Of a DNA stretch of 64,000 bases, positions 2,992 to 63,959 are shown one piece after another. Origin of the DNA: Eledone cirrhosa. Taxonomy: Eukaryota. The stretch lies in the NCBI GenBank assembly GCA_964016885.1, contig OZ024743.1, positions 14,198,001 to 14,262,000 of the forward strand, given 5' to 3'. The position numbers and the translations under genes were made by a program. The notes below the pieces were generated by a model that ran no database searches, had not been told where the DNA came from, and was given only the letters and a program-made list of their open reading frames with translations. Position 1 is the first letter of the stretch; the number at the start of each line of letters is the position of its first letter.

Positions 2992-3124
2992 GTGAGTTTT
3001 TTTTACAAAATAAAAAATAACCGAGGTGTACTACACGAGTGAAAGTATAAAGAAAAAGAGATGAAATCGAAAATCCAACTGGAGTCTTATTTAAAAAAAT
3101 ATAAATATATATAGTTATTTGGTT

Positions 3125-3162
3125 CCTTTACCGGTTTCGCAGTTCTTCTGCTTTTCAAAAGG
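3125..3162 (-). ncRNA. Minimal type I hammerhead ribozyme, U3-A8 variant
   Basis: Reverse complement of 3222-3259. Confidence 0.7.
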
Positions 3163-3221
3163 TGAGTTGAGATGGAGGGTCTGTGGTTTTTCTCACATCT
3201 GTGACCCTCCATCTCAACTCA

Positions 3222-3259
3222 CCTTTTGAAAAGCAGAAGAACTGCGAAACCGGTAAAGG
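3222..3259 (+). ncRNA. Minimal type I hammerhead ribozyme, U3-A8 variant
   Basis: CCTT-TTGAAAA-GCAG(aagaa)CTGC-GAA-ACCGGT-A-AAGG: stems I, II and a palindromic stem III all pair. Confidence 0.72.
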
Positions 3260-3337
3260 AACCAAATAACTATATATATTTATATTTTTTTAAATAAGAC
3301 TCCAGTTGCATTTTCGATTTCATCTCTTTTTCTATAT

Positions 3338-3474
<137 letters not shown>

Positions 3475-3823
3475 TATATTAGTAGTAAAGAATACATTTT
3501 AAGCGAACATTTTCTGCTTTCTCCATAAACGTTTAGGGGTTTAGGGTATAAGCATAAATGGTGATAAAGATATTAATCCTATTCTAATTGTGTATTTATC
3601 TTCGATAACCTTACGACTTGCGAATGCAGGTAGGCATATCCTGACTGTAAAATATATGGTGCATCCGAAAACGTAACGACCCAAGATATTCTTCGTTATT
3701 ATTGTAATAAAATATGACAGCATACTCCTAGCCTTTATCTATAAATTATTCAAGGTTCTCCGTCAAATAATTAGACTGCTGTCCCCCTATTACAACCACA
3801 GCTTCGATGTGTTCCTCGAAATA

Positions 3824-3848
<25 letters not shown>

Positions 3849-3854
<6 letters not shown>

Positions 3855-4230
3855 GAAAATAGAATAGCTTTCACCGTATTTTTGACTAAAGAAATTTTAG
3901 CCTGATAATGGGGTTTAGAACCCTCAGATAAATGGAAAAGGATGAGTATTCACGTACATGGCAGTCGAACCCACATCTTTGGTTATCCAGACCACTGTGC
4001 TACCATTACACCTACACATCGCGTGTTGGTGTAATGGTAGCACAGTGGTCTGGATAACCGAAGATGTGATTTCGACTCCCATGTACGTCAATACTCATCC
4101 TTTCCCATTTATCTGAGGGTTCTAAACCCCATTATGAGGCTAAAATTTCTTTAGTCAAAAATACGGTGAAAGCTATTCTATTTTCTAATTTCAAACCTGC
4201 TCACTGTTTCAAAACATACTTACTTGTCAT
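3849..4230. mobile_element. Head-to-head fold-back of a ~210-nt tRNA-headed element in (TA)n
   Basis: Arms 3849-4019 and 4021-4191, tail 4192-4230; the centre coincides with the tRNA-like 5' end. Confidence 0.8.
4020..4090 (+). pseudogene. tRNA-derived head (pseudo-tRNA; inverted copy at ~3950-4020)
   Basis: A box TGGTGTAATGGT; B box GGTTCGACT (intact in the left arm); D stem GTGT/GCAC; T stem GTGGG/CCCAT in the two-arm consensus; imperfect anticodon stem with loop CTGGATA. Confidence 0.75.
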
Positions 4231-4501
4231 ATATTTATATATATTTTCCTAAGATTTAGGAAAATCTGCTTCGTAGAATCAAGACGTACGTGAGCACATT
4301 GCGATTTTCAGAGCCAGGTTCGATCATCACATCGATCGTGCCTCAAGCTGGTCGCCAGAGAAACGATTGTAATATGTCCAATAAATTCCATTCGTTGCAA
4401 CATTGATTCTCTTTTTTTTCTGTGATATCATACTCTGCTCTATGAGAGCATCGAGTGCTCGAACAGCCTACCACATACGGACGCTTTAAGCATCCAACAC
4501 C

Positions 4502-4551
<50 letters not shown>

Positions 4552-4554
<3 letters not shown>

Positions 4555-4649
4555 AAAAAGTATGTCCCCGACGGCAGACTTCAACTACCCTAAATATTGA
4601 GTACTCTGGTGCGTTATGGTCCATCTGGTTCTTTACCACAATTCCTTTG

Positions 4650-4650
<1 letters not shown>
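4552..4650. mobile_element. Micro fold-back of PLE family B 3' end
   Basis: Short inverted stub (ggaaaaagtatgtccccgacggcaga) joined to a tail matching 6513-6580 and 17558-17630; (TA)n flanks. Confidence 0.75.
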
Positions 4651-4716
<66 letters not shown>

Positions 4717-4792: not shown

Positions 4793-6580
4793 AATGCCGA
4801 GGTGGCAACACCTATCGGGAAAATCCTCTTTAGGCTCCTCGAAAAACACTTCCCACTACCACACCGCTACCACAACATAATCAACAAAAACACCATCAAA
4901 CTACCCTACAGCACCACACCTAACTTCGCACAAAACATCGTCTCCTCAAACAACAAAAAACTCAACCCCTATGGAAGAAATAACCTAGATATTAGTGGAG
5001 AGCCGACTAGGAGTTGTACCTGCCCTGATAGATATATGTGCCCCCTCAACAACAGATGCCGAGTACGTAACGTGATCTACCACTGCAACGTGAGGACGGA
5101 CACCTCCAACAAAGCTTATATAGGATTAACCGCTTGTGGCTTCAAGACCCGGCTCTACCAACATAAACATACTTTCCGAAACCCGGTCCGGCGACATGCC
5201 ACTATACTTTCGGGCCACATCTGGGACCTCAAAGATAATAATATAACCTACAAACTCACTTGGCGCTTACTGTTCAGAGCTAACTCTTACACGGGAGGAC
5301 ACCGTCCGCGTAACCTATGCCCGGAGGAAATATTACAAATGGTGTTTTCGAAGGAACAACTCCTAAAAACAAGAACTGGTAACCGCATGCAAACACAGAT
5401 TGCGTAGGACTTACCTCGCCCTCAAACCCCATAACGACCCAGGTGGGTAGACAAGGGCTGATACCCCCAGTTGCTTAATAAACAAGGGGAAACCCCAGCT
5501 TATATAGATAGACGTACCTCTTTTCTTTTCCTCTATGTTTTCTTCTTCCCCCGTCTCATCCTATCACTTCCTTCCTCCCCCGATCTTCTTCCTCGTCTGT
5601 TTTTCCCCTTTCGCCTACCCCGATGAAGCCCATCAGTCCTCTGTAGCCTAAGTACCCCCACCCCTGTAATTTTAAGATAGAGCTGGCCGATTACGCTTTA
5701 CTAACTATTTATAGCAGATGTGTTAGACCCCTGTAATTTTGTATCTATTTTGTTACTACTCCAATTCTTATTTCAATATTTCTTATTTAGTATTTTTCTA
5801 TTCTCATCTTATTAATCTGTAATTGAAAGATAACGTTGGCGGATTACGCTTTACTGACTTTTTTATAACAGCTGTGTTAGACCCCTGAAAAGTTTGCATT
5901 ATATTTTTCACTACCCACTTCTACAATTTCTTATTTAGTATTTTCCATTCTCAACTTATTAAACTTTTCTATAGCTTTGCCGTACAAGCAACACCTACTA
6001 ATTATAGCAGCTGTTTCTAGACTCTACTGTTTTTTTTTATTTGTTTTTGTATTCATTTCTCACTATCTAATTTTATATATATATATATATTTTTCATTGT
6101 CTCCTACTTTGACTTACCTATTCTTTGACCTACCTATTTGGCTTACCTATTCTTTAAACTCCCCTCCTCCTTTTTTCCCAGAACAATTGTTCGACTTTTC
6201 ATACACTATCTTTAGAATCTGCTGTATAGATTTCATTTTCAACGCCTGACTGGCTTTACTCACTGCCTCATTGTTCTACAGGCAAGTTCAGCCACCCCTA
6301 CTTCCCACCAAATGCCATGATAGATTTATTTGTGTTTACAACAAATTTTGACCAATCCTCTTGACAACTACAATCTTCCCATATAAGGAAGTACCCCTTG
6401 ACAAGTTCGGCTATTTATTTACCAGGCTAAACATTCTAATTTAGTCCAGAAATAACCGTTAAACGGCTTGAGCTCTGCCGTCGGGGTCATACCTTTTCCT
6501 ATTACCCACTCTACTACCCTAAGTATTGAGTACTCTGTGCGTTATGGTCCATCTGGTTCCTTACCACAAGGCCTTCGTTA
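4793..6580 (+). mobile_element. 5'-truncated PLE (family B): GIY-YIG remnant plus 3' UTR
   Basis: ORF 4802-5407 has CTC..CPLNNRC, VIY and YIGLT..FKTRLYQH, homologous to the C-terminus of ORF 22359-24647; (TA)n flanks. Confidence 0.9.
6393..6487 (+). ncRNA. Hammerhead ribozyme, U3-A8 variant (GAAA damaged in this copy)
   Basis: ACCCC-TTGACAA-stem II (cggctattt/aaataaccg)-[T]AAA-CGGC..GCCG-TC-GGGGT; intact GAAA 3' half at 17706-17746. Confidence 0.6.
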
Positions 6581-6754
6581 CATATATATATATATATATA
6601 TATTGGCTGTGCGGATGATCTGTTTAACCATCATCTCAGTGTGTTTGGCCCTTAACGTATGTTGTAGCTCTGATTCACACGAATCATCGAGCGCTTGCCA
6701 CACATATCGGACTTTTCGTTAATTCCTGAGCTGAAATACGATTCTTGCTAATTT

Positions 6755-14924: not shown

Positions 14925-14964
<40 letters not shown>

Positions 14965-15208
14965 TTTTGCGAGGTTTTTTGTTATGAAATTCGTGTGTCG
15001 AAATAAATATTGTTATACTTGGGGAGGGTCATATTTGTGTAATATTGCAAGAATAAATAACAGAACACACTCACTGTTTGGTTCGTTTTCGCTTTTCGTT
15101 TCTGTGTCTATTATATCGGTAATCTAATTTATTCGGTCCTCAATGTTGCCATTGACTGACCAACGGTCAAAATTAATACAGATACAATATAGACACAAAC
15201 ACATATAT

Positions 15209-15262
15209 ATAGTTTATCATAAATCTTTCGTTGCACATCTGCAACATCGTCAGTGGTGCTAT
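15209..15262 (-). ncRNA. Minimal hammerhead-like motif (inverted copy)
   Basis: Reverse complement: CTGACGA-T-GTTGCA..TGCAAC-GAAAGATTTA; stem I weak. Confidence 0.55.
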
Positions 15263-17306
15263 TGTTTCCTCCCGTTACATAGTATTTTCTACGCCATCTT
15301 TATTTAAGTCTGTTTATATATTTATTTATTTGTTTATTTTATTTTGTCTTCTTTGCGCATGCGTTTGCGTGTGTGTATAGTGTTTTGGTTGATGTGTGTT
15401 CGTAGTTGGGTGACTGTGTATTGGTTAATGTATTCTATCTTTACTAGTGTGTGTTTATATGTGTTTGTTGTTATTGTGCTTGTGTATGTATTTATTTATT
15501 TATTTATTTATCTATTTATTTATTTATTTATACTTCTCTTAGGTCAGTGTTGTTTGTTCGGGTGTTGTTGTTATTCCATTCATTCTTTCTGTTTAGCCTT
15601 GGCCTTCTAAGTTCTATTTCACTGGCCTCTCTGATTTGCCTATCTGCTGGGTCATTTCTATGTTTAGATATTATTCTAATTTCTATGTTGTCTATGTTAC
15701 CGTCGTGTTGTTGTCTGGCATGTTCGTATAGTACTGACCCGTTTTTTCGTCCTTTTAGTTCCCCCCAGTGTTGGTCTATCCTTTCGCCTTTGCTACGAGC
15801 TGTCTCGCCTATGTATGTTGATGTCATGTTTCTGCAAGTACCCTCTGTACATCTTATGCTATAGTCTACGTTTCTAGTTTTACAGTTTATCCGGGGGTTT
15901 ACCTTACATATGATACATTTCCTATTAGTACAGTGGGTTTTCTTAAAAGGGTAGGTTTTGCTGATCAGGGATTTTATGGTGGTTTTTGGCTTTTCTACTA
16001 CCTTAATCTTTAAGTGGGTCTTTCTCAGTAGTCTATTGTTAGGGTGTCTGGAAGGGTACCTGTATTAGACACGGAACTCTGGATTAACACTATAGACGAG
16101 AGAGCCCAAATTCTCCACTCACACTATGCTATACCCTTGGCCTCCAAATACCTGATACTCAAAAACTCAGCAATGTCCAGTAGTGCTAAGTTTAATATTC
16201 TGATCGCAGATTTGGTACGAGTGATGAAGAATGGGTCCCGCATGTTCGACCCAACAGAAATGGAAAGACACATCCAACACTTCATCAACCGCATGCAGTT
16301 TCTCTGGCTACAACCAAAGAGACAGAGTCAGAGTATACGAAGGAGCCATGGAGAAGTATAAGACCCTCATAGAACTGGACATGAAAGAAATTTGCCCATT
16401 ATACAGGAGCAAAACATGGAATAGCTTAGATAGAGCTAGACATAAGATAGGGAAAGCCACCTCATGGTACGACAACCAGAGATACCATAGTCATGTTTGT
16501 GGACGCTACCCCTGGAGGAAAATTAACTAACCAGTGTAGAAAGGCCCTGAGAAAGACCCTCTTAAATATTAAGGTGGTAGAAAAGCCAGGTACCATAATA
16601 AAATCCCTGATCAGCAAAACCTACCCTTTTAAGAAAACCCACTGTACTAATACGAAATGTATCATATGTAAGGTAAACCCCCGGATAAACTGTAAAACTA
16701 GAAACGTAGTCTATAGCATAAGATGTACAGAGGGTACTTGCAGAAACATGACAACACCATACATAGGCGAGACAGCTCGTAGCATAGGTGAAAGGATAGA
16801 CCAACACTGGGGGGACTAAAAGGACGAAAAAACGGGTCAGTACTATACGAACATGCCAGACAACAACACGACGGTAACATAGACAACATAGAAATTAGAA
16901 TAATATCTAAACATAGAAATGACCCAGCAGATAGGCAAATCAGAGAGGCCAGTGAAATAGAACTTAGAAGGCCAAGGCTAAACAGAAAGAATGAATGGAA
17001 TAACAACAACACCCAAACAAACAACACTGACCTAAGAGAAGTATAAATAAATAAATAAATAGATAAATACATAAATAAATACATACAGAAGCACAATAAC
17101 AACAAACACATATAAACACACACTAGTAAAGATAGAATACATTAACCAATACACAGTCACCCAACCACGAACACACATCAAACAAAACACTATACACACA
17201 CGCAAACGCATGCGCAAAGAAGACAAAATAAAATAAACAAATAAATAAATAGATAAACAGACTAAATAAAGATGCCGTAGAAAATACAATGTAACGGGAG
17301 GAAACA

Positions 17307-17360
17307 ATAGCACCACTGACGAAGTTGCAGATGTGCAACGAAAGATTTATGATAAACTAT
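17307..17360 (+). ncRNA. Minimal hammerhead-like motif
   Basis: CTGACGA-A-GTTGCA(gatg)TGCAAC-GAA-AGATTT-A; stem I interrupted. Confidence 0.55.
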
Positions 17361-17557
17361 ATATATATGTTTGTGTCTATAGTGTATCTGTATTATTTTT
17401 GACCGTTGGTCAGTCAATGACAACATTGAGGACGGAATAAATTAGATTACCGATATAAAAGACACAGAAGCGAAAAGCGAAAACCAACCAAACAGTGAGT
17501 GTGTTCTGTTATTTATTCTGGCAATATTACAATATAAATATATATATATATATATAT

Positions 17558-17760
17558 AACAAAGGAATTGTGGTAAGGAACCAGATGGACCATAACGCAC
17601 CAGAGTACTAAATACTTAGGGTAGTAGAGTGGGAAATTGTAAAAAGTATGACCCCGACGGCAGAGCTCAAGCGGTCTCGATGGCTATTTCTAGCCGGCTA
17701 TGTCCAGAAATAGCCGTCGAAACGGCTTGAGCTCTGCCGTCGGGGTCATACTTTTTCCTA
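17558..17760. mobile_element. Fold-back of PLE family B 3' end
   Basis: Inverted arms ~17641-17691 and ~17706-17756; tail on the left arm; (TA)n flanks. Confidence 0.8.
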
Positions 17761-17798
17761 TATATATATATACGTGTGTGTGTGTGAGAGAGAGAGAA

Positions 17799-22213: not shown

Positions 22214-24647
22214 ATGGAAAAACAATATTTGGGAACCTCTTTAAAGAACATACCAATACCTTCTAAGGATGACTTCTTACTCCTTATGATTCAAAAAACT
22301 AATAATTTTATCAGAAGGGTTAGATGGAGGGCCTACCACTTCGATAAAAAATCTAAACATGCAGATCGGAAATATATGTATGATTTCAATACTTACAAGA
22401 ATCCACCACACAACTCTTTACTTGAAGACTTTGAGAAAGACCTTTGAGAAAGACCTTTTTAATTTAATTAAACACCTCAAATTTAAAAAGTATATATCCG
22501 TCTTTCAAAAGGACCTAAAAAAGTCTAAAAAAATCCATGTCCACTCGGACAAAACTGGTAACTTGTATCACATGGATATTGAACATTATAAGGAGTTCAT
22601 ATATAAAGAACTCAGGAAAAATTATAAAAAATCTAATAATGCGTCACTCACCAACATCAACAACAAAACACACAACATAGTAAAAAAACTAAACATTGAA
22701 GATAGAACTGAACCTTTGGCATTGAAAAGACCACACTTCAACCTGAAGGATCATAAATCAAACTTTAACTTAAATCCTTCTATAAGACTTATATGTCCCT
22801 CCAAATCAGATATTGGAATAATTAGCAAAAAAATTTTGGATAGAGTCATCCCACAAATAAGAAAACACGTTATTTTACCACTCTGGGAAAACACCTCCCA
22901 GGTAATTAACTGGTTTAAAAATATTAGATGTAAATCTTCTGCTTCATTTCTACAATTTGATATAGATAATTACTATTCTTCTATATCACCTATACTCCTG
23001 AACAAAGCATTGATATTTGCTAAAAATAGATCTAACTTAACTTTGGATGACATTAATATTATTACACATGCTAGACTAACACTTATTGAATTTCAGAATG
23101 AATACTGGACCAGAAACACATATAGTAATCTATTTGATATTACTATGGGTTCAAGCGATTCCGCCCAAATTACTGATCTTGTGGGCCTCTTTCTCCTTTT
23201 CAACATAAATGCCTCCTTTCCCCACCTTAAAGGTGGTTTATATCGTGATGACTGTCTTCTTCTTTCCAACAACCTTAGCCTTTCAGAAATAGAAAAAAAC
23301 AAAAAGCATATTAGAACTTTCCTTAAAGACTATTATAATCTTCATATTACTTTTGAAAAAACAAGTAAAGTAGTAAATTTCCTAGATATAACTTTAGATT
23401 TAGCTACGGGTATCTACCAACCTTACCATAAACCAAACCAAAACTTACATTACATACACTCACAATCTAATCACCCTAAATCTATCCTTAAAAACCTTGC
23501 ATATAATATATCACTTAGAATTTCTAACCTTTCTTCTAACCAAGATGTATTTGATAAAAATGCGACCTTCTATAACGAAGCTCTAGATAGAAGTGGCCAC
23601 AAAAATAGATTAGAATATATACCTTCTACTAAAAATACTAAAAACATACAACCTAATATTAGCAACAAACACCAAATGAAAAGTACACACCTAAATGCCA
23701 CCCACACTATACCCCAAAATACCAAATCTTCTAATATAAAATATAGTAACTCTCAAAAAACTACTCATCATACAACTCTAATAAATATTAATAATAAAAC
23801 TCCTAATAAAAAAGATAAAACACCTAAATCTACAAATATAACTAAAAATGGTTGTGGTGAGATCATTAACATTAATCCTCCTAGTAAACATCACGATACA
23901 ACCTATAAAAATAATAAAAATAATAAACAACATAGAAACCGTAATAGACGGGTTACTTGGTATAATGCTCCATTTAATTTACAAATTAAGGATAATATTG
24001 CTAAAAAAATTTTTTATATCCTAGAGAAAAACTTCCCGCCAAACCACAAATACCATCAAATCTTAAATAGGTCTACAGTTAAATTCTCATACTCAACAAC
24101 AAATAACATAAAACAAAATATAAGTGCCTATAATGCATATAAATGTAAGAAAACCATAAGTATACCACCAATACATCAAACTAACCATAATATCTCCTCA
24201 AATACAGAATTAACGAAAGGTTGTAACTGTAGAAACAAAGCAAACTGCCCATTAAAAGGGAATTGTCTTGTTAACAACATAGTCTATAAATGTAATGTTA
24301 AAACTAAAGATTCTATTTGCTCATATATAGGAGCTACTTCTAACAATTTTAAGACAAGGTTTAATACCCACAAGCATAGTTTTAAAAATGCTGCACTGGC
24401 TAATACAACATCTCTAGCAGAAAAAATCAATAGTTATAAAAATAAGAATATAGAATATGATTTGACCTGGAGTGTGCTCAAAAGAGCCACCCCTTATCAA
24501 AATAATAGAAATGAATGTAGATTATGTTCCCAAGAACTATTTGAAATAATGAAATCTAAGGATATCCTATTAAATAAACGACAGGAATTAATTATATCGT
24601 GTAATCATAAATTAAAAAAAACATTTAAATATTATAAACCTAATTAA
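22214..24647 (+). pseudogene. PLE reverse transcriptase + GIY-YIG endonuclease ORF (~806 aa when repaired), one frameshift
   Basis: SDKTGN, FDIDNYYSSI, MGS, LYRDD, VNFLDITL, IVY..YIGAT..FKTRFNTH, CRLC; 13-bp duplication at 22429-22454 shifts the frame. Confidence 0.93.
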
Positions 24648-24706
24648 TAACATTATTTTAGAAATTAATGTTATTAATTAGGTTTATAATATTTAAATGT
24701 TTTTTA

Positions 24707-24892
24707 TGGGTGGTGGATTGGCAGTATCGGTAGAGGGTCGGACGTCATGCTTTCCAGCATAGTTACGTCCCTTTACGATCTGAGTTCAAATCCCGCCGAG
24801 GTTGACTTTGCCTTTCATCCTTACGGGGTCGATAAAATAAAGTACCAGTAATGCACTGGGTAATTGCTGGCCTTGTGCCTAAAGTAGAAACA
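24707..24892 (+). mobile_element. tRNA-derived SINE inserted just after the PLE stop codon
   Basis: B box GAGTTCAAATCC, body gactttgcctttcatcc..ggggtcgataaaat; 18-bp TSD attattttagaaattaat at 24652-24669 and 24893-24910. Confidence 0.85.
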
Positions 24893-25974
24893 ATTATTTT
24901 AGAAATTAATATATAATTTAATTTAAATGTTAGTTAACCTATAAATTTAATTTAATTAAAATTCTACTACAGATGAGAATATAAAATATTGTGTAATCAT
25001 AAATTGTGAAAAACCTTTAAATATTACTAATATATACTTAGTAATTTAATTTATAGATTAATTTTAATTTATTTAACCCTTTATTAAAATTCCTTTACAG
25101 ATAAAATATAACAAAATATCGTATATTCAAGGACAGAGAAATAATTTTTAGTATTATAGACCTAATTAATATACATTTTAGAAATATATTTATAATTTGG
25201 TTTTAAATTTAGTCAACCTAAAAATTTAATTTATTGGCTTAAAATTAGTATCCTAATACAGACGGATTGCAGAGTGTCATGTAATCATAGAATGGGATGT
25301 GTTTTGGATGTATACCTAATTAATATATTCTTTGCAATTTTTGAAAAAATATGTATATGTATGTATATATATGTATGTGTATGTATGTATATATATATGT
25401 GTATATATTTATATGTATGTATATGTATATATATATATGTATTAATTTTGATTTCTGTTTACATATAATTATATTCTGCTATTGATAAAATACAATATCT
25501 GTTTTATTTATTATATACCTAATTAACATATACTATAGAAATTAATATATAACTTTTAATTTAGTTAACCTATAATTTATATTCTACTACTGATGTAATA
25601 CTTTATTTGTTTTTTCCCTATTACTAAATTCATTTCCTAATATTGATACCATAACGTTAATAATTTTAATTTAGTTATACTATAATTAATACTCTACTAC
25701 TATTTAACTTCAAAATTCTGCTTCAAATATTATAAACCTAAGTAATTTACACCTTAGAAATCAATATGTTAACTATCTTTAGTTTAGTTAACCTATAATT
25801 AATGGTATACTTATATTGAAATGCATAATTTTGCATTTCCTAATACTGAAACTTTGTAAACACATATTTAGATCCAAATACAGATTAATATTCTATGTTT
25901 CTTGAAACATATATTTACTATAATCCCCTTCTCCCCCCCCCTTCCCCCCTACTATTATTATCTGTATTTGTAAG

Positions 25975-30786: not shown

Positions 30787-33429
30787 CATCATCATCATCA
30801 TCATCATCACCGTTTTACGTCCGTTCTTCCACGCTAGCATGGGTTAGACGGGTTGTCCTGTTGTGGGCAGTGTCTGGTCGGCTGACCATGCCTTGCTCAT
30901 ACAGGAACTGATCTGGCTTGATTTCTACAGCTGGATGCCCTTCCTAACACCAACCTCATTTACAGTGAGTGCTGGGTGCTTTTTCGTGGCGCCTACACGT
31001 CCACTTTACAGTGTGGGCTGGGTGCTTTTTTGCCGTGGCACCTCCACGACCACCTTGCGGTGGGGGGGGGGGGGCATATTGTTTATATGCTTCAGCATGT
31101 ACCCATGGGAGGTCGGGTACCCTGTATTACTGCGTGACGCCAGAAGTCACGGTCGTGTGTCATTGACTTTGAGAGGTGTAGTTGGGTAAGGTCGGCTTTT
31201 ATCACCTCATCCCAAGTCATCTTGGGTCTCCCCACTCCGCGGTTTCCATCAACTTCTAGTGCTCTGCACCTTTTTATGCAGCTGTCATCCTTCATACGCA
31301 TCACATGTCCATACCAGCGTAACCGCCTCTCCTGCACGCAGCATTTGATTCCTCTTATGCTCAGTCTCTCTCTCAATTCATTTATGCTTTGTCGTTCACG
31401 TATATTACTGTTACACATCCATCGGAGCATGCAGGCTTCGTTTCTCTCTAATCTACGTAAGTCTTCCACCTTCAGCGCCCAGGTCTCACTACCATGCAAC
31501 ATCGCTGTTCGGATACACGCATCATACAGTCTGCCTTTCATTCTGAGGGAGAAGCCTTTTGCAGCTAGCAGTGGTAGTAGTTCCCTAAACTTCTTCCATC
31601 CCGTTCTTACCCTAGTTATTGTACTTTCTGAGCACCCACCTCCGTTGCTAATTCGGTCACCTAGGTAGCAGAAGCTGTCTACTGTTTCTACAGGGCCCTC
31701 CCAGAGATTGGTGGTACTTGTTTCCTGTGGCTGTTTGCTTGCTGTTTCAGCACAGCTGCTGCATGTGAATCCTACATTCTTAATTAAGCTTCCTGAGATC
31801 CCGCTACATCTCTTGTGTACCCATTGTTTGCATTTGGGGCAAAGAATGGAGTTCCTACCTACACCTTTCCTACATACTGAGCAAGGCCATTTCCCTGAGG
31901 GGATCTGGGTTCTGTTTTCTCGTCTACTTATAAGGACCTTAGTCTTTGTCATGTTGACTTTGAGGCCCTTTCTCTCTAGTCCCTGCTTCCAGGTTTGGAA
32001 TTTATTCTCTAGTTCTACCATAGATTCAGCTATGAGTGCGAGGTCATCAGCATACAGGAGTTCCCATGGGCATCCGGTCTTAAACTCCTCCGTTATTGCC
32101 TGCAGGACTATGATGAACAGGAGAGGGCTAAGAACAGAGCCCTGGTGGACCCCAACCTGTACGCTAAATTCCTCGCTATACTCATTGCCAATCCTAACTT
32201 TGCTGACTGCTCCCCTATACATGGCTTGTACCGCTTTCACAAGCCATTCATCTACTCCTAGTTTTCTAAGAGCCCACCAGATTACTGCACGTGGAACTCT
32301 GTCAAAGGCTTTCTCAAGGTCGACAAATGCCAAGTAGAGTGGCTTACTTTTAGCTAGGTACTTTTCCTGTAATTGCCTCACAAGGAAGAGCGCATCAGTG
32401 GTGCCTTTCCCTGGAACAAACCCAAATTGCATCTCGTCTATATTCACCCGGTCCCTAATCAGCTGTGCTATAACTCTTTCTGTTACTTTCATGACCTGGT
32501 CCATCAACTTTATACCTCTATAGTTTCCTCTATCTAGTGCATCGCCTTTACCTTTGTAGCAGTTGACAATGATGCTACTGCACCAATCTTTTGGTATGGC
32601 CCCCTCTAGTATTACCTGGTTAACGATACGTGTGGTTATAGTGTGACCTACAGACCCAGATGCCTTCAGCATCTCGGCAGCTATACCCGATGGACCGGTT
32701 GCCTTCCCTATCTTCATATCTCTGATTGCCTTACTTACTACGCTGCCGCTGACTTGTACTGCTGGTCCCTCTATAGGGTCTACGTGGGGTAGGGTCTCTT
32801 CTTCCCATGCATTCTCCTCATTTAGTAATCTATCATAATGACTCTTCCATGCATCTTTCTTCTCAGCACTTGTGAGGGCAAGCTCACCTTTATCATTCCG
32901 GATACACTTCTCTCCAATGACATCACAACTATCTCTGACACACTGCCTCGCAATCTTGAATACCTCCTGTTTCTGGTCCTCACGTTGTAAAACATGCTTG
33001 AATTTTCTATCCTCTGCTTCCCTCCTAGCTAAGTATACTTGTCGCCTAGCTTCCCTCTTGGTCTCTATGTAATGTACCCTGCTCCCCCCGTTCTCCCATT
33101 CTTTCCATGCCTGTCTCTTGGCCTTGACTGCTTCATCTACCTTATTGTTCCACCACCAAGTCACTCTCCTCCTGCTTGAGGTCTTACTCCAGCCACAAAC
33201 CTCATCCGTCGCCTCTAGTAAGTTATTTTTTAGGAACTCCCAGTTCTCTTCTACGTTAAATGTCTCTATCTGTTCTTCTTTACTGTCGTAGGCGTTGAGT
33301 AAAATATCTTTAAATCTGTTACTGGTTGAGGGGACTTTCAGCTTCCAGATCTTTCTTCTCCAGGTTGGCCTCTGTTTCAGGGCTCGTCTAGTTCTGACCG
33401 TGAGGTCGCTGACAACTAAGCTATGTTGG

Positions 33430-33432
<3 letters not shown>
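30787..33432 (-). mobile_element. 5'-truncated RTE-clade LINE with (TGA)n tail
   Basis: (CAT)n at 30787-30810 on the + strand; RT ORF; truncated at the end of the APE domain (SQHSLVVSD); (TA)n on both sides. Confidence 0.93.
31092..33164 (-). CDS. RTE reverse transcriptase (N-truncated) with a PHD-like zinc finger
   Basis: NYRGIKL, QFGF, FVDLEKAFD, GVHQGSVLSPLLF, YADD, CSVC..CPKC..VHKRC..CSSC; uninterrupted 690 aa. Confidence 0.92.
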   Translation of the reverse strand: MTWWWNNKVDEAVKAKRQAWKEWENGGSRVHYIETKREARRQVYLARREAEDRKFKHVLQREDQKQEVFKIARQCVRDSCDVIGEKCIRNDKGELALTSAEKKDAWKSHYDRLLNEENAWEEETLPHVDPIEGPAVQVSGSVVSKAIRDMKIGKATGPSGIAAEMLKASGSVGHTITTRIVNQVILEGAIPKDWCSSIIVNCYKGKGDALDRGNYRGIKLMDQVMKVTERVIAQLIRDRVNIDEMQFGFVPGKGTTDALFLVRQLQEKYLAKSKPLYLAFVDLEKAFDRVPRAVIWWALRKLGVDEWLVKAVQAMYRGAVSKVRIGNEYSEEFSVQVGVHQGSVLSPLLFIIVLQAITEEFKTGCPWELLYADDLALIAESMVELENKFQTWKQGLERKGLKVNMTKTKVLISRRENRTQIPSGKWPCSVCRKGVGRNSILCPKCKQWVHKRCSGISGSLIKNVGFTCSSCAETASKQPQETSTTNLWEGPVETVDSFCYLGDRISNGGGCSESTITRVRTGWKKFRELLPLLAAKGFSLRMKGRLYDACIRTAMLHGSETWALKVEDLRRLERNEACMLRWMCNSNIRERQSINELRERLSIRGIKCCVQERRLRWYGHVMRMKDDSCIKRCRALEVDGNRGVGRPKMTWDEVIKADLTQLHLSKSMTHDRDFWRHAVIQGTRPPMGTC

Positions 33433-33525
<93 letters not shown>

Positions 33526-35069
33526 TTTTACCTACCATATAGCAGGAACAATTCGAGTTGTTTGAGGCAATCACAAAGCACCCAATGTATCAAGAAATAT
33601 ATACATTATCGTCTGGAGTAAACACAAAATTAAAATGGGTTAGACGAAGAAAACTGACCGATTGCAATATCGATACATATATCACAACGATGATGAATGC
33701 AGAATGGCTGAAAACTAACCTGGACCTTCTTGTGTTGATTAGAATCTATATTATCGATAAGAATTTTCGATAGGTTTCTGGGACCACTGGAAGTTACATA
33801 ACAATTTGCATAATTCTCATGCAATAAATGTGTGGACCTCCATGATGGAACTTTAGTTCACGTCATCGGCAGGTTTTGCCGCTTATCTAAATTTCCGTCT
33901 GATAACAGAGGCACACCTATAGTAGTGATTTAGGCTGCGACGTCACCTGACCTTTCTCAAAAGAGGAAGGTTAGGTTGGCCTAAGTTTTGACTTTTATTT
34001 GGGAGGTTGAGAAAAAATGAAATTCAGACTCAAGACAAAAGTTCTCCACTAGTGTTTGTAAACAAACAATAGTTAAACTATCATCGAACGAAAGAGAATA
34101 AATATATAGGGTATAGATCGAATCTGTAGCTGCTGTATAGATGGTACTGTTCATTTTTTTTTAAAGATTCTTTATTTGAAAACATATGTTGAAATAGAAA
34201 CTCTTATGCGATAGGGTTGTCATGCTGCCAATAAAAACACACGCACCCGTTGGGCATCACTTCAATGTATTTTTATAATTTCCCAGTCGGATAATATAAT
34301 TATCGGTGGATAAATGTTTAGTTGAGGATTTGAAAGCTCTTTTGTCACATATTGTGTGAGCTCTACGGTGACACCTCTTGTTATTTTGTGTCTCTCTTTT
34401 GATAAGATTTACGCCATCTGGTTTTTGTGAGTTGCGCCTGCGTTTCATTCATGTGTAAGAACACTGGTGAGAACTGAAAATCGACAGATAATCTCATCAC
34501 TACTCCACAAACATGCCAGAATCGAACATGATGTCTCAGCAACTATAGACAAATTCTGACCAAAATTAAATAGAAAGTAAGAATGGAATAGTAACATAGT
34601 AGCTCAGAACAAAATAAATATATATAAAGAGACACAAGAAGAAAATTAATAAGTGAAATAGAAACCACTACTACACATATGCACAGACACACAGAGATAG
34701 AACAAGTAAACAACTGGTGACAAGTAGGAAAAATAAAAAATAAAAATAATTATAAAACAAATACATAATCATAAATTAATTAAAAATAGATAGAAAAACA
34801 CACACTCATACGGATGTTACGCATGCGTAATCCACATCTACGCTGGTTCTTTCAGGGGTATGCTTTTGTCCAAATATGTATATATACACCTACCGTTGTC
34901 TGCTAAATTTGTCATAATTTGTATCCGTAAAAGGTATGTCAAGTGCTAGAGAGGTCATTCATGCTCCTGCAGTTCCAAAGCTGTGTCTCTCCAAGCAATT
35001 CAAAAATACAAAGCACATAAAAGAACCGAATTCACCCTGACAGTTGTCCCGCTTTGTCTCCCTTCTAAT

Positions 35070-54449: not shown

Positions 54450-55597
<1,148 letters not shown>

Positions 55598-63337: not shown

Positions 63338-63513
63338 ATTAGAAAGTGAAGTTCTTTTACAAAATGTTTTTTCTCAGATGTGAGAAAAACCACAGACCCT
63401 CCATCGCAACTCTACTTTTGAAGAGCATAACTGCGAAACCGATAAAGGAACGAAATAAATATATATATTTAAAAAGAAAAGACTCCAGTTGCATTTTCGA
63501 TTTCATATTTTTT

Positions 63514-63520
<7 letters not shown>
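63338..63520. mobile_element. Older family A 3'-end insertion
   Basis: Inverted terminal stub plus a diverged copy with a decayed HHR (63415-63448). Confidence 0.75.
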
Positions 63521-63549
<29 letters not shown>

Positions 63550-63959
63550 TCAGACGTATAATATATATATATATATTATAAGTGTGAGTTTTATGCTTAT
63601 ATAATCTGTAAAATAAGCCTCTAGCAAATAGCACCCCGTTTGAAATATTTAACATAATTCTCCAAGTGTTCAGTGCATACGAGTTTGCAAACATTAAAAG
63701 GTCTGCTTAACACATATTCCATTTGTAATATATAAATAATGGATTCTGCTATTTAATTCTTTTGAAAATATCGCAAAAATATATAATGTTTACCGTATTC
63801 CGCTAGAGGGATTCGAATAAAAAGAAAGGTAAATAATGGAAGACTGAATGTAGATTGGGGTTGTGGTGGACTGGGACTAACGTAAACAAATTGAATAAGG
63901 ATAAACAGAAGAGCTTTTAATATTTGAATATATAGCACATGTGTATATAACGATGCCAC

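Follow-up and report, generated by a model that had tools for sequence, protein, structure and literature searches.

A tRNA-headed short repeat of Eledone cirrhosa that lacks a hammerhead core and shows Penelope-type integration

The window analysed here is a stretch of 64,000 nucleotides from Eledone cirrhosa (G000:C4:14198001-14262000, in an assembly of 3.0 Gb and 1,796 contigs), in which (TA)n and Penelope-like ORFs are abundant and the repeat landscape seems octopod-like. Positions 3849-4230 hold a single insertion of a young repeat family. A first-pass annotation of this insertion, made from the DNA letters, had described a tRNA-like cloverleaf and a body duplicated head to head, with TA-rich flanks, a tail on one arm only and neither poly(A) nor a clear target site duplication (TSD), and each of these features was confirmed. 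The inverted repeat occupies 3849-4017 and 4023-4191, with arms of 169 nt that are 95% complementary and have 5 nt between them. The right arm is around 39 nt longer than the left, reaching 4230, and (TA)n lies on either side of the element (left target flank at 3823-3848, TA-rich right flank at 4229-4243). Poly(A) is absent, and a TSD is unreadable within the (TA)n.

Comparison with the family places the short arm (3849-4020, minus strand) at positions 1 to ~172 of the repeat unit, ending at the first of two 3' sites (~170; the family 3' ends cluster here at 152-176 with a mode of 170), and the long arm (4023-4230, plus strand) at unit 4 to ~211. At the junction (4018-4023) the short arm runs to tRNA +1 and the long arm begins at about +4, with 2 nt between them. 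The tRNA-like heads, each comprising a cloverleaf with A and B boxes, lie at 3950-4020 (minus strand; also aligned with host tRNA-Gln) and 4020-4090 (plus strand; two private changes in the B box, as seen by arm comparison), and score 29.3 and 27.7 bits respectively with the Rfam tRNA model (RF00005, gathering score 29). ARAGORN called no tRNA in the window, but it does call tRNAs in less decayed copies of the family, which reach 43-51 bits in Rfam. On the plus strand, unit 61-70 (4080-4089) covers the 3' side of the T arm and the acceptor stem; arm-end counts make this the family's main stop site, which was passed here. It is followed by a tRNA-gene-like trailer (4091-4110) with a T5 at unit 81-85, the first T of which is a C in both arms of this copy, by a body with two hairpins and no hammerhead core (4111-4189), and by a tail of ~40 nt present in one arm only (4190-4230). 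The tail lies between the two 3' sites, which is how a tail is defined in the available text of PMC11167929.

A DNA search of the genome gave 1,592 first-look candidates, with full-length matches 92-97% identical among the 40 that were scored. The T-arm motif had 1,224 exact matches and the 22-nt tail motif 3,682, and reversed controls gave none. The element is therefore a multi-copy family rather than a single-copy sequence, for which two subfamily consensuses could be built, and copies diverge from their subfamily consensus by a median of 2.1% (64 copies). The unit is 260 nt long in subfamily A and 268 nt in subfamily B, with a head (1-71), a trailer carrying the T5 (81-85), a body to ~208 and a 52-nt spacer that is present in tandem copies only. 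Hence the head of ~70 nt and body of ~140 nt first described are retained, but the complete unit is a 260-nt tandem monomer that also includes the spacer. The trailer is complementary to, and can pair with, the final 18 nt of the spacer, which in tandem copies directly precede the head. Like a SINE, the repeat is short, non-coding, dispersed and multi-copy. At G000:C1 ~131.459-131.466 Mb (L077, L101-L102) the element forms a decayed array of tandem copies that extends over several kb and resembles a satellite expansion; it has an inverted part at its start and the far 3' site in TA at its end. Two further head-to-head junctions, at G000:C1:294309970 and C1:402226041, have different leader and acceptor sequences, hinting at another subfamily or a sister family with the same D arm.

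Between the two subfamilies, 1 of the 71 positions of the head differs, as do 21 of the 117 in the body, and all 20 trailer positions are identical (Fisher p 3e-4 for head versus body). Template switching between subfamilies was considered as the source of head conservation and rejected, since neither the 68 inverted pairs nor the 29 tandem pairs that were typed included an A/B chimera; the lack of chimeras makes selection the likelier cause.

The A and B boxes are intact in the family consensus, and alignment of the head with host tRNA-Gln genes gives 50 identities and a score of 60 compared with 26+/-5 for shuffled sequence, which upholds the tRNA-Gln likeness first noticed in the D arm. Within a comparison set of Gln, Ala and Asp genes only, the Ala and Asp genes fit less well than Gln. 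The anticodon stem contains a G.A mismatch, a T follows the anticodon, and positions 32-33 of the anticodon loop vary within subfamily A. Given that the loop varies within one subfamily, the head is, as judged from its sequence, not a working tRNA. Subfamilies A and B both have the T5 at unit 81-85 unchanged, and a run of five or more Ts is kept there in 113 of 134 copies. It occupies the position of the first T run in host tRNA genes, 19 of 50 of which have only a T4 there, and it looks like a working Pol III terminator that has to be read through. With a T5 at this position Pol III should mostly stop before the reverse transcription start sites; most Pol III transcripts would then end near position 85, so that only read-through RNAs could be copied. 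Some host tRNA-Gln genes (L269, L270) have a similar trailer, which suggests that an entire tRNA gene was captured. Separately, tRNA-Gln-derived gene copies with a CTA anticodon, probably pseudogenes, were seen within a tandem tRNA cluster (L216-L218).

The first-pass annotation had also proposed a decayed hammerhead ribozyme (HHR) around a ggctaaa/tttagtc hairpin. The hairpin is present, but the presumed core 'ttatga' results from a C>G change confined to the right arm; ttatca stands in the left arm and in the family consensus. A CUGANGA core is absent from both strands of the subfamily A dimer, and Rfam searches of four loci returned no ribozyme family among 73 matches at E values up to 10. 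A hammerhead descriptor search was blank for both subfamilies and is given no weight, as its positive control did not fire. The hammerhead was rejected on the core scan, the Rfam result and the arm comparison, and neither an intact copy per unit, as in retrozymes and Sm-alpha, nor a decayed one was recovered by these scans. These results bear directly on the idea that the repeat is a retrozyme-like element with a self-cleaving ribozyme, be it a decayed hammerhead or an unrecognised one. Its 260-nt tandem units are within the retrozyme size range, retrozymes have themselves been proposed to depend on Penelope-like elements (PLEs), and the antisense strand has a faint hammerhead-like order of hairpins; however, with no core, no Rfam ribozyme and a candidate motif created by a mutation in one arm, we regard this explanation as very unlikely. 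Elsewhere in the window, another family of short inverted elements flanked by TA, whose hammerhead-like motif is degenerate (3046-3338, 54455-55371, 63372-63580), is probably a PLE end or a non-autonomous PLE, and a small TA-flanked palindromic family (4539-4677, 6444-6603, 17532-17772) is often found beside the studied element in fetched loci.

Integration was scored on the first 70 loci on contig C1 that carry the T-arm motif. Nine were dropped (seven second matches on the same insertion, one duplicated region and one decayed array), leaving 61 insertions. A complementary tail-anchored sample, for which the head was not required, comprised 90 loci and 130 arms; both samples come from the first part of this contig and required an exact motif match. 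The arms were head to head with their 3' ends outward in 46 of the 61 T-arm-anchored insertions, so the fold-back form is common in the sampled copies. The 3' ends fell at unit 152-176 (51 ends, mode 170) or at 198-217 (47 ends) in 98 of 107 cases, which defines two sites ~38 nt apart; ends called at 216 reflect alignment run-on into TA. Among the 46 inverted pairs, 32 had one end at each site, five used the near site twice, none used the far site twice and nine were irregular. TATATA or ATATAT occurred within 20 nt of 93 of the 107 ends as against 13% of 2,097 background 20-mers, extending the TA-rich flanks of the window copy to the family.

A conventional tRNA-SINE in the same fetched DNA served as a control. 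Only two of its 62 copies were inverted, its copies share a common 3' end, and several have TSD-like repeats. In the window this abundant type of SINE is represented at 24705-24910, inside the 3' region of an 830-aa PLE and with a target duplication. An ordinary LINE-mobilised SINE that frequently underwent twin-priming inversion in a TA-rich genome would account for the tRNA head, and (TA)n is indeed very common in this genome. Such a SINE would not account for arms that point 3' outward and overlap in sequence, for two fixed internal 3' ends or for the missing A-rich tail, and the control behaves differently in the very same loci. LINE-type tails or TSDs at non-TA sites, which had been named as evidence against the original proposal, were not seen in the sampled copies, most 3' ends being set into (TA)n. 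We consider the LINE-based explanation largely refuted and its residual probability minimal.

The repeat instead has the features of a non-autonomous PLE: a tail of 30-40 bp on one end, an inverted 5' copy, partial tandems (260 nt) and an AT-rich or microsatellite target. The LINE-type 3' end, single 3' terminus and TSD of classical LINE-dependent SINEs are lacking. A 30-40 bp tail on one end is given as a PLE signature in the accessible part of PMC8557442. In PMC11167929, a purified PLE acts on AT-rich DNA by extending both strands and begins reverse transcription at two internal sites, the stretch between them becoming the tail. Integration is Penelope-type, and mobilisation in trans by a PLE is very likely.

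An intact GIY-YIG PLE family encoding 830 aa provided a positive control, as it has two fixed 3' ends, 137 nt apart, that are set into TA. This family (window 22290-24647; L143-L172, L208-L212) is very young, with 150 scored copies 98-100% identical, and has a 6.6-kb tandem unit, a long tail of 137 nt and many head-to-head pairs. The window also contains a head-to-head GIY-YIG PLE at 14961-17531, whose ends are unequal and lie in TA and whose 3' region has a hammerhead-like CUGACGA-stem-GAAA stretch, and, at 31092-33527, an 811-aa ORF for a LINE-type RT in which a PHD finger follows the RT domain. Pfam missed three of four PLE ORFs, which were identified by motif and tblastn. The 3' similarity to an autonomous PLE that had been anticipated was not found among the PLEs sampled. 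Searches against 30 loci and one full unit of the 830-aa family gave a best E value of 1.7, and of 0.015 over 51 nt on the opposite strand; 23 PLE 3' regions showed no similarity, one strong match (L067) being a neighbouring copy of the element itself; and 50 GIY-YIG loci showed no partner similarity (best E 0.22). This search covered sampled PLEs with no Naiad query, in a genome that holds many more PLE families.

We then considered where the arms end on their 5' side, leaving out of the stop-rate count arms with a 3' end outside the two sites and keeping L117, a near duplicate of L116. The commonest end lies in the T arm. It accounts for 51 of the 89 arms that reach position 70 (~57% of arms at risk), which end at 61-70, as against a pooled rate of 31/650 per 10-nt bin over 71-130; p-values from such counts overstate certainty, since arms of one insertion are not independent. 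Eighteen arms stop exactly at 61, the first T-stem G-C pair met from the 3' side, and none of 130 stops at 57-60. The T-arm stop is also seen in asymmetric joins and in single arms that abut TA directly, and short palindromes alone are therefore insufficient to explain it. RT stalling on the folded tRNA elbow appears the likeliest cause. A block at m1A58 is disfavoured because it predicts ends at 57-60, where there are none, although it is possible given 3' trimming before joining.

A spacer-less palindromic junction at the T-arm site recurs at 670 loci. As a hairpin cannot form without a loop, we read this junction as two cDNA ends annealed via a 4-nt palindrome. A single cDNA folding back, as first proposed, is disfavoured: junctions that are palindromic and lack a spacer, and 5' ends that are unequal, are better explained by two cDNAs primed separately and then joined end to end. 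The recurrence of one junction, along with the inverted arms and TA flanks, would also be expected of a TA-targeting MITE or fold-back DNA element, or of palindromic master copies amplified as such. Nevertheless, the arms have unequal fixed ends, the centre differs from copy to copy, single arms and tandems exist, and in the sampled loci one junction recurs in different subfamilies, all of which render a DNA element of this kind highly improbable.

A second stop lies just upstream of the head, where 52 of 125 arms (a set that includes the 30 best-match loci) end at -9 to +8 and none at -10 to -17. Both arms stop there, and are joined within 25 nt of that point, at 95 loci genome-wide. A hand count among 50 listed double-stop junctions gave 16 arms at -6, nine at -5 and one beyond. 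This sharp edge supports the earlier suggestion that copying reached an RNA 5' end close to the tRNA. The joining at the tRNA 5' end seen in the window copy is nevertheless a minority junction class, as most arms in the family stop at the T arm or run further upstream. RNase P was rejected as the maker of the edge: it cuts at +1, yet leaders of 4-9 nt are common. The 5' end placed indirectly, by the junctions, at -6 is an A located 13 nt before the A box (T8), and Pol III starts 10-15 nt before the A box (PMC8969392); the edge thus likely fits a Pol III start, and for at least the monomer class we hold such a start to be probable. Contigs from two sequencing runs of unrecorded type, aligned with the element, were uninformative about starts and ends.

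Other arms do not stop at the head but extend into the unit upstream of it; these make up 24 of 31 arms when sampling is anchored on the tail and 31 of 67 in the T-arm sample. Exact read-through junctions number 509 compared with 95 double-stop loci. Long multimeric RNAs must therefore exist and could be Pol II products, since continuation into the upstream unit needs either repeated read-through or Pol II. Rare variants are common to both arms of one insertion in 27 of 251 cases as against 16 of 2,941 between loci, implying that both arms derive from one source locus, whereas tandem units share them in only 3 of 93 cases.

These observations are central to weighing a further explanation, in which the repeat is a non-autonomous PLE and its captured tRNA gene serves as a passenger or a structural module. 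Pol II read-through of tandems would then be what transposes, Pol III would yield only a dead-end RNA of ~90 nt, and the -6 edge would be a stall or processing site. The T5 conserved at terminator distance and the frequent multimeric arms agree with this, the RT could stall on entering the 18-bp leader/trailer helix, and tandem units sharing fewer rare variants than inverted arms fit long array transcripts. The edge at -6 is nonetheless sharp and is hit by both arms in 95 loci, with zero arms ending between -10 and -17; arms that enter the helix by way of the trailer stop at a rate of just 7-8% per 10 nt; and an RNase P cut at +1 cannot leave leaders of 4-6 nt. We regard this explanation, with the tRNA gene as passenger or module, as unlikely.

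The reading we favour, and consider moderately probable, is that of a non-coding repeat headed by a tRNA gene, in which Pol III makes the RNA and a Penelope-like RT/GIY-YIG protein copies it in trans. Here Pol III would begin on a tandem copy, ~6 nt before the tRNA-like head, and some of its transcripts would pass the T5 that follows the head. A PLE protein would nick both strands of a (TA)n site, and two cDNAs would be primed internally on the RNA, at unit ~170 and ~208, as the end pattern suggests. Each cDNA would head for the RNA 5' end; the ~57% that stop at the T arm would be those stalled on the way, and the remainder would stop at the RNA start or enter the upstream unit. Short microhomologies may then join the two cDNA ends, and the product would be a head-to-head copy in which one arm has the tail. 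To act as a source, a copy would need the whole unit and the spacer. The stronger form of this proposal is evenly balanced in our estimate: a true ribozyme-free Pol III SINE depending on PLE rather than LINE machinery, with a whole captured tRNA gene (leader and terminator), in which the folded tRNA elbow blocks the PLE RT so reliably that thousands of junctions would record the RNA start and structure at nucleotide resolution.

Several known systems share parts of this arrangement. As in the Schistosoma Sm-alpha and Sj-alpha repeats, there are a Pol III promoter, tandems and multimeric transcripts, with single copies as dead ends; Sm-alpha has an active hammerhead that the element lacks, and the PLE-type integration seen here is not shown for Sm-alpha in the available part of that source (PMC6765202). 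Metazoan non-LTR retrozymes likewise have short tandem non-coding units and a proposed use of PLEs, yet they are defined by a type I hammerhead and described without promoters in the accessible text (PMC7229834, PMC7761336, bioRxiv 10.64898/2026.07.22.740005), in contrast to the tRNA promoter and missing hammerhead of the element. The lack of a hammerhead sets the element apart from both the retrozyme and the Sm-alpha type. Non-autonomous Chlamys elements (MRC1) and Naiad PLEs have partial tandems, an inverted 5' copy and microsatellite targets, and MRC1-type and Naiad PLEs also share the 30-40 bp tail on one end and no canonical hammerhead. However, the 3' end of the Chlamys elements is generally like that of the partner and no tRNA head is described in the part of PMC8557442 at hand, whereas the element has no similarity to a partner among the sampled PLEs. 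Poseidon PAc of Anolis has two internal RT starts, an AT-rich target and extension of both strands, and a need for RNA beyond the RT start sites would be shared as well; it is autonomous and has a hammerhead in the available text (PMC11167929), and the element is neither autonomous nor so equipped.

Conventional tRNA-SINEs, such as that at window 24720, also have a tRNA-derived head with A and B boxes, and the A box of the element, ~13 nt from the proposed 5' end, is within the 10-15 nt given for them (PMC8969392). The element differs in that its arms are head to head and end at two internal 3' sites, a TSD and a LINE-type 3' end are missing, a terminator-like T5 is retained and the cloverleaf is nearly intact. 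Among cephalopod repeats, the octopus OK, OR1 and OR2 are conventional tRNA-SINEs. In its structural features the element works like a non-autonomous PLE, with no similarity to the PLE partners sampled. Non-autonomous PLE dependants (MRC1, retrozymes) and the combination of a Pol III promoter with a hammerhead in tandem repeats (Sm-alpha) are already known from the accessible portions of the sources above. The initial remark that no PLE-dependent SINE is well described therefore holds for a tRNA-headed, ribozyme-free case, but Sm-alpha and retrozymes are partial precedents. Our literature search, which lay outside Repbase, Dfam, subscription journals and supplements, where the family may carry another label, found no tRNA-headed, ribozyme-free PLE-mobilised SINE, and no such element is mentioned in the available parts of cephalopod repeat papers and a butterfly paper.

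A curation guide defines SINEs as Pol III elements relying on LINEs and asks for TSDs as confirmation (PMC8969392), and elements of the present type would therefore be missed or filed as tRNA, MITE or unknown. The PLE reaction has so far been reconstituted for one element only, and the repeat offers a trans substrate of 260 nt for it. Its thousands of natural junctions back two-strand, two-site priming in vivo, for which a hammerhead is not needed, and the stop in the T arm would represent an in-genome footprint of RNA structure on a telomerase-related RT.
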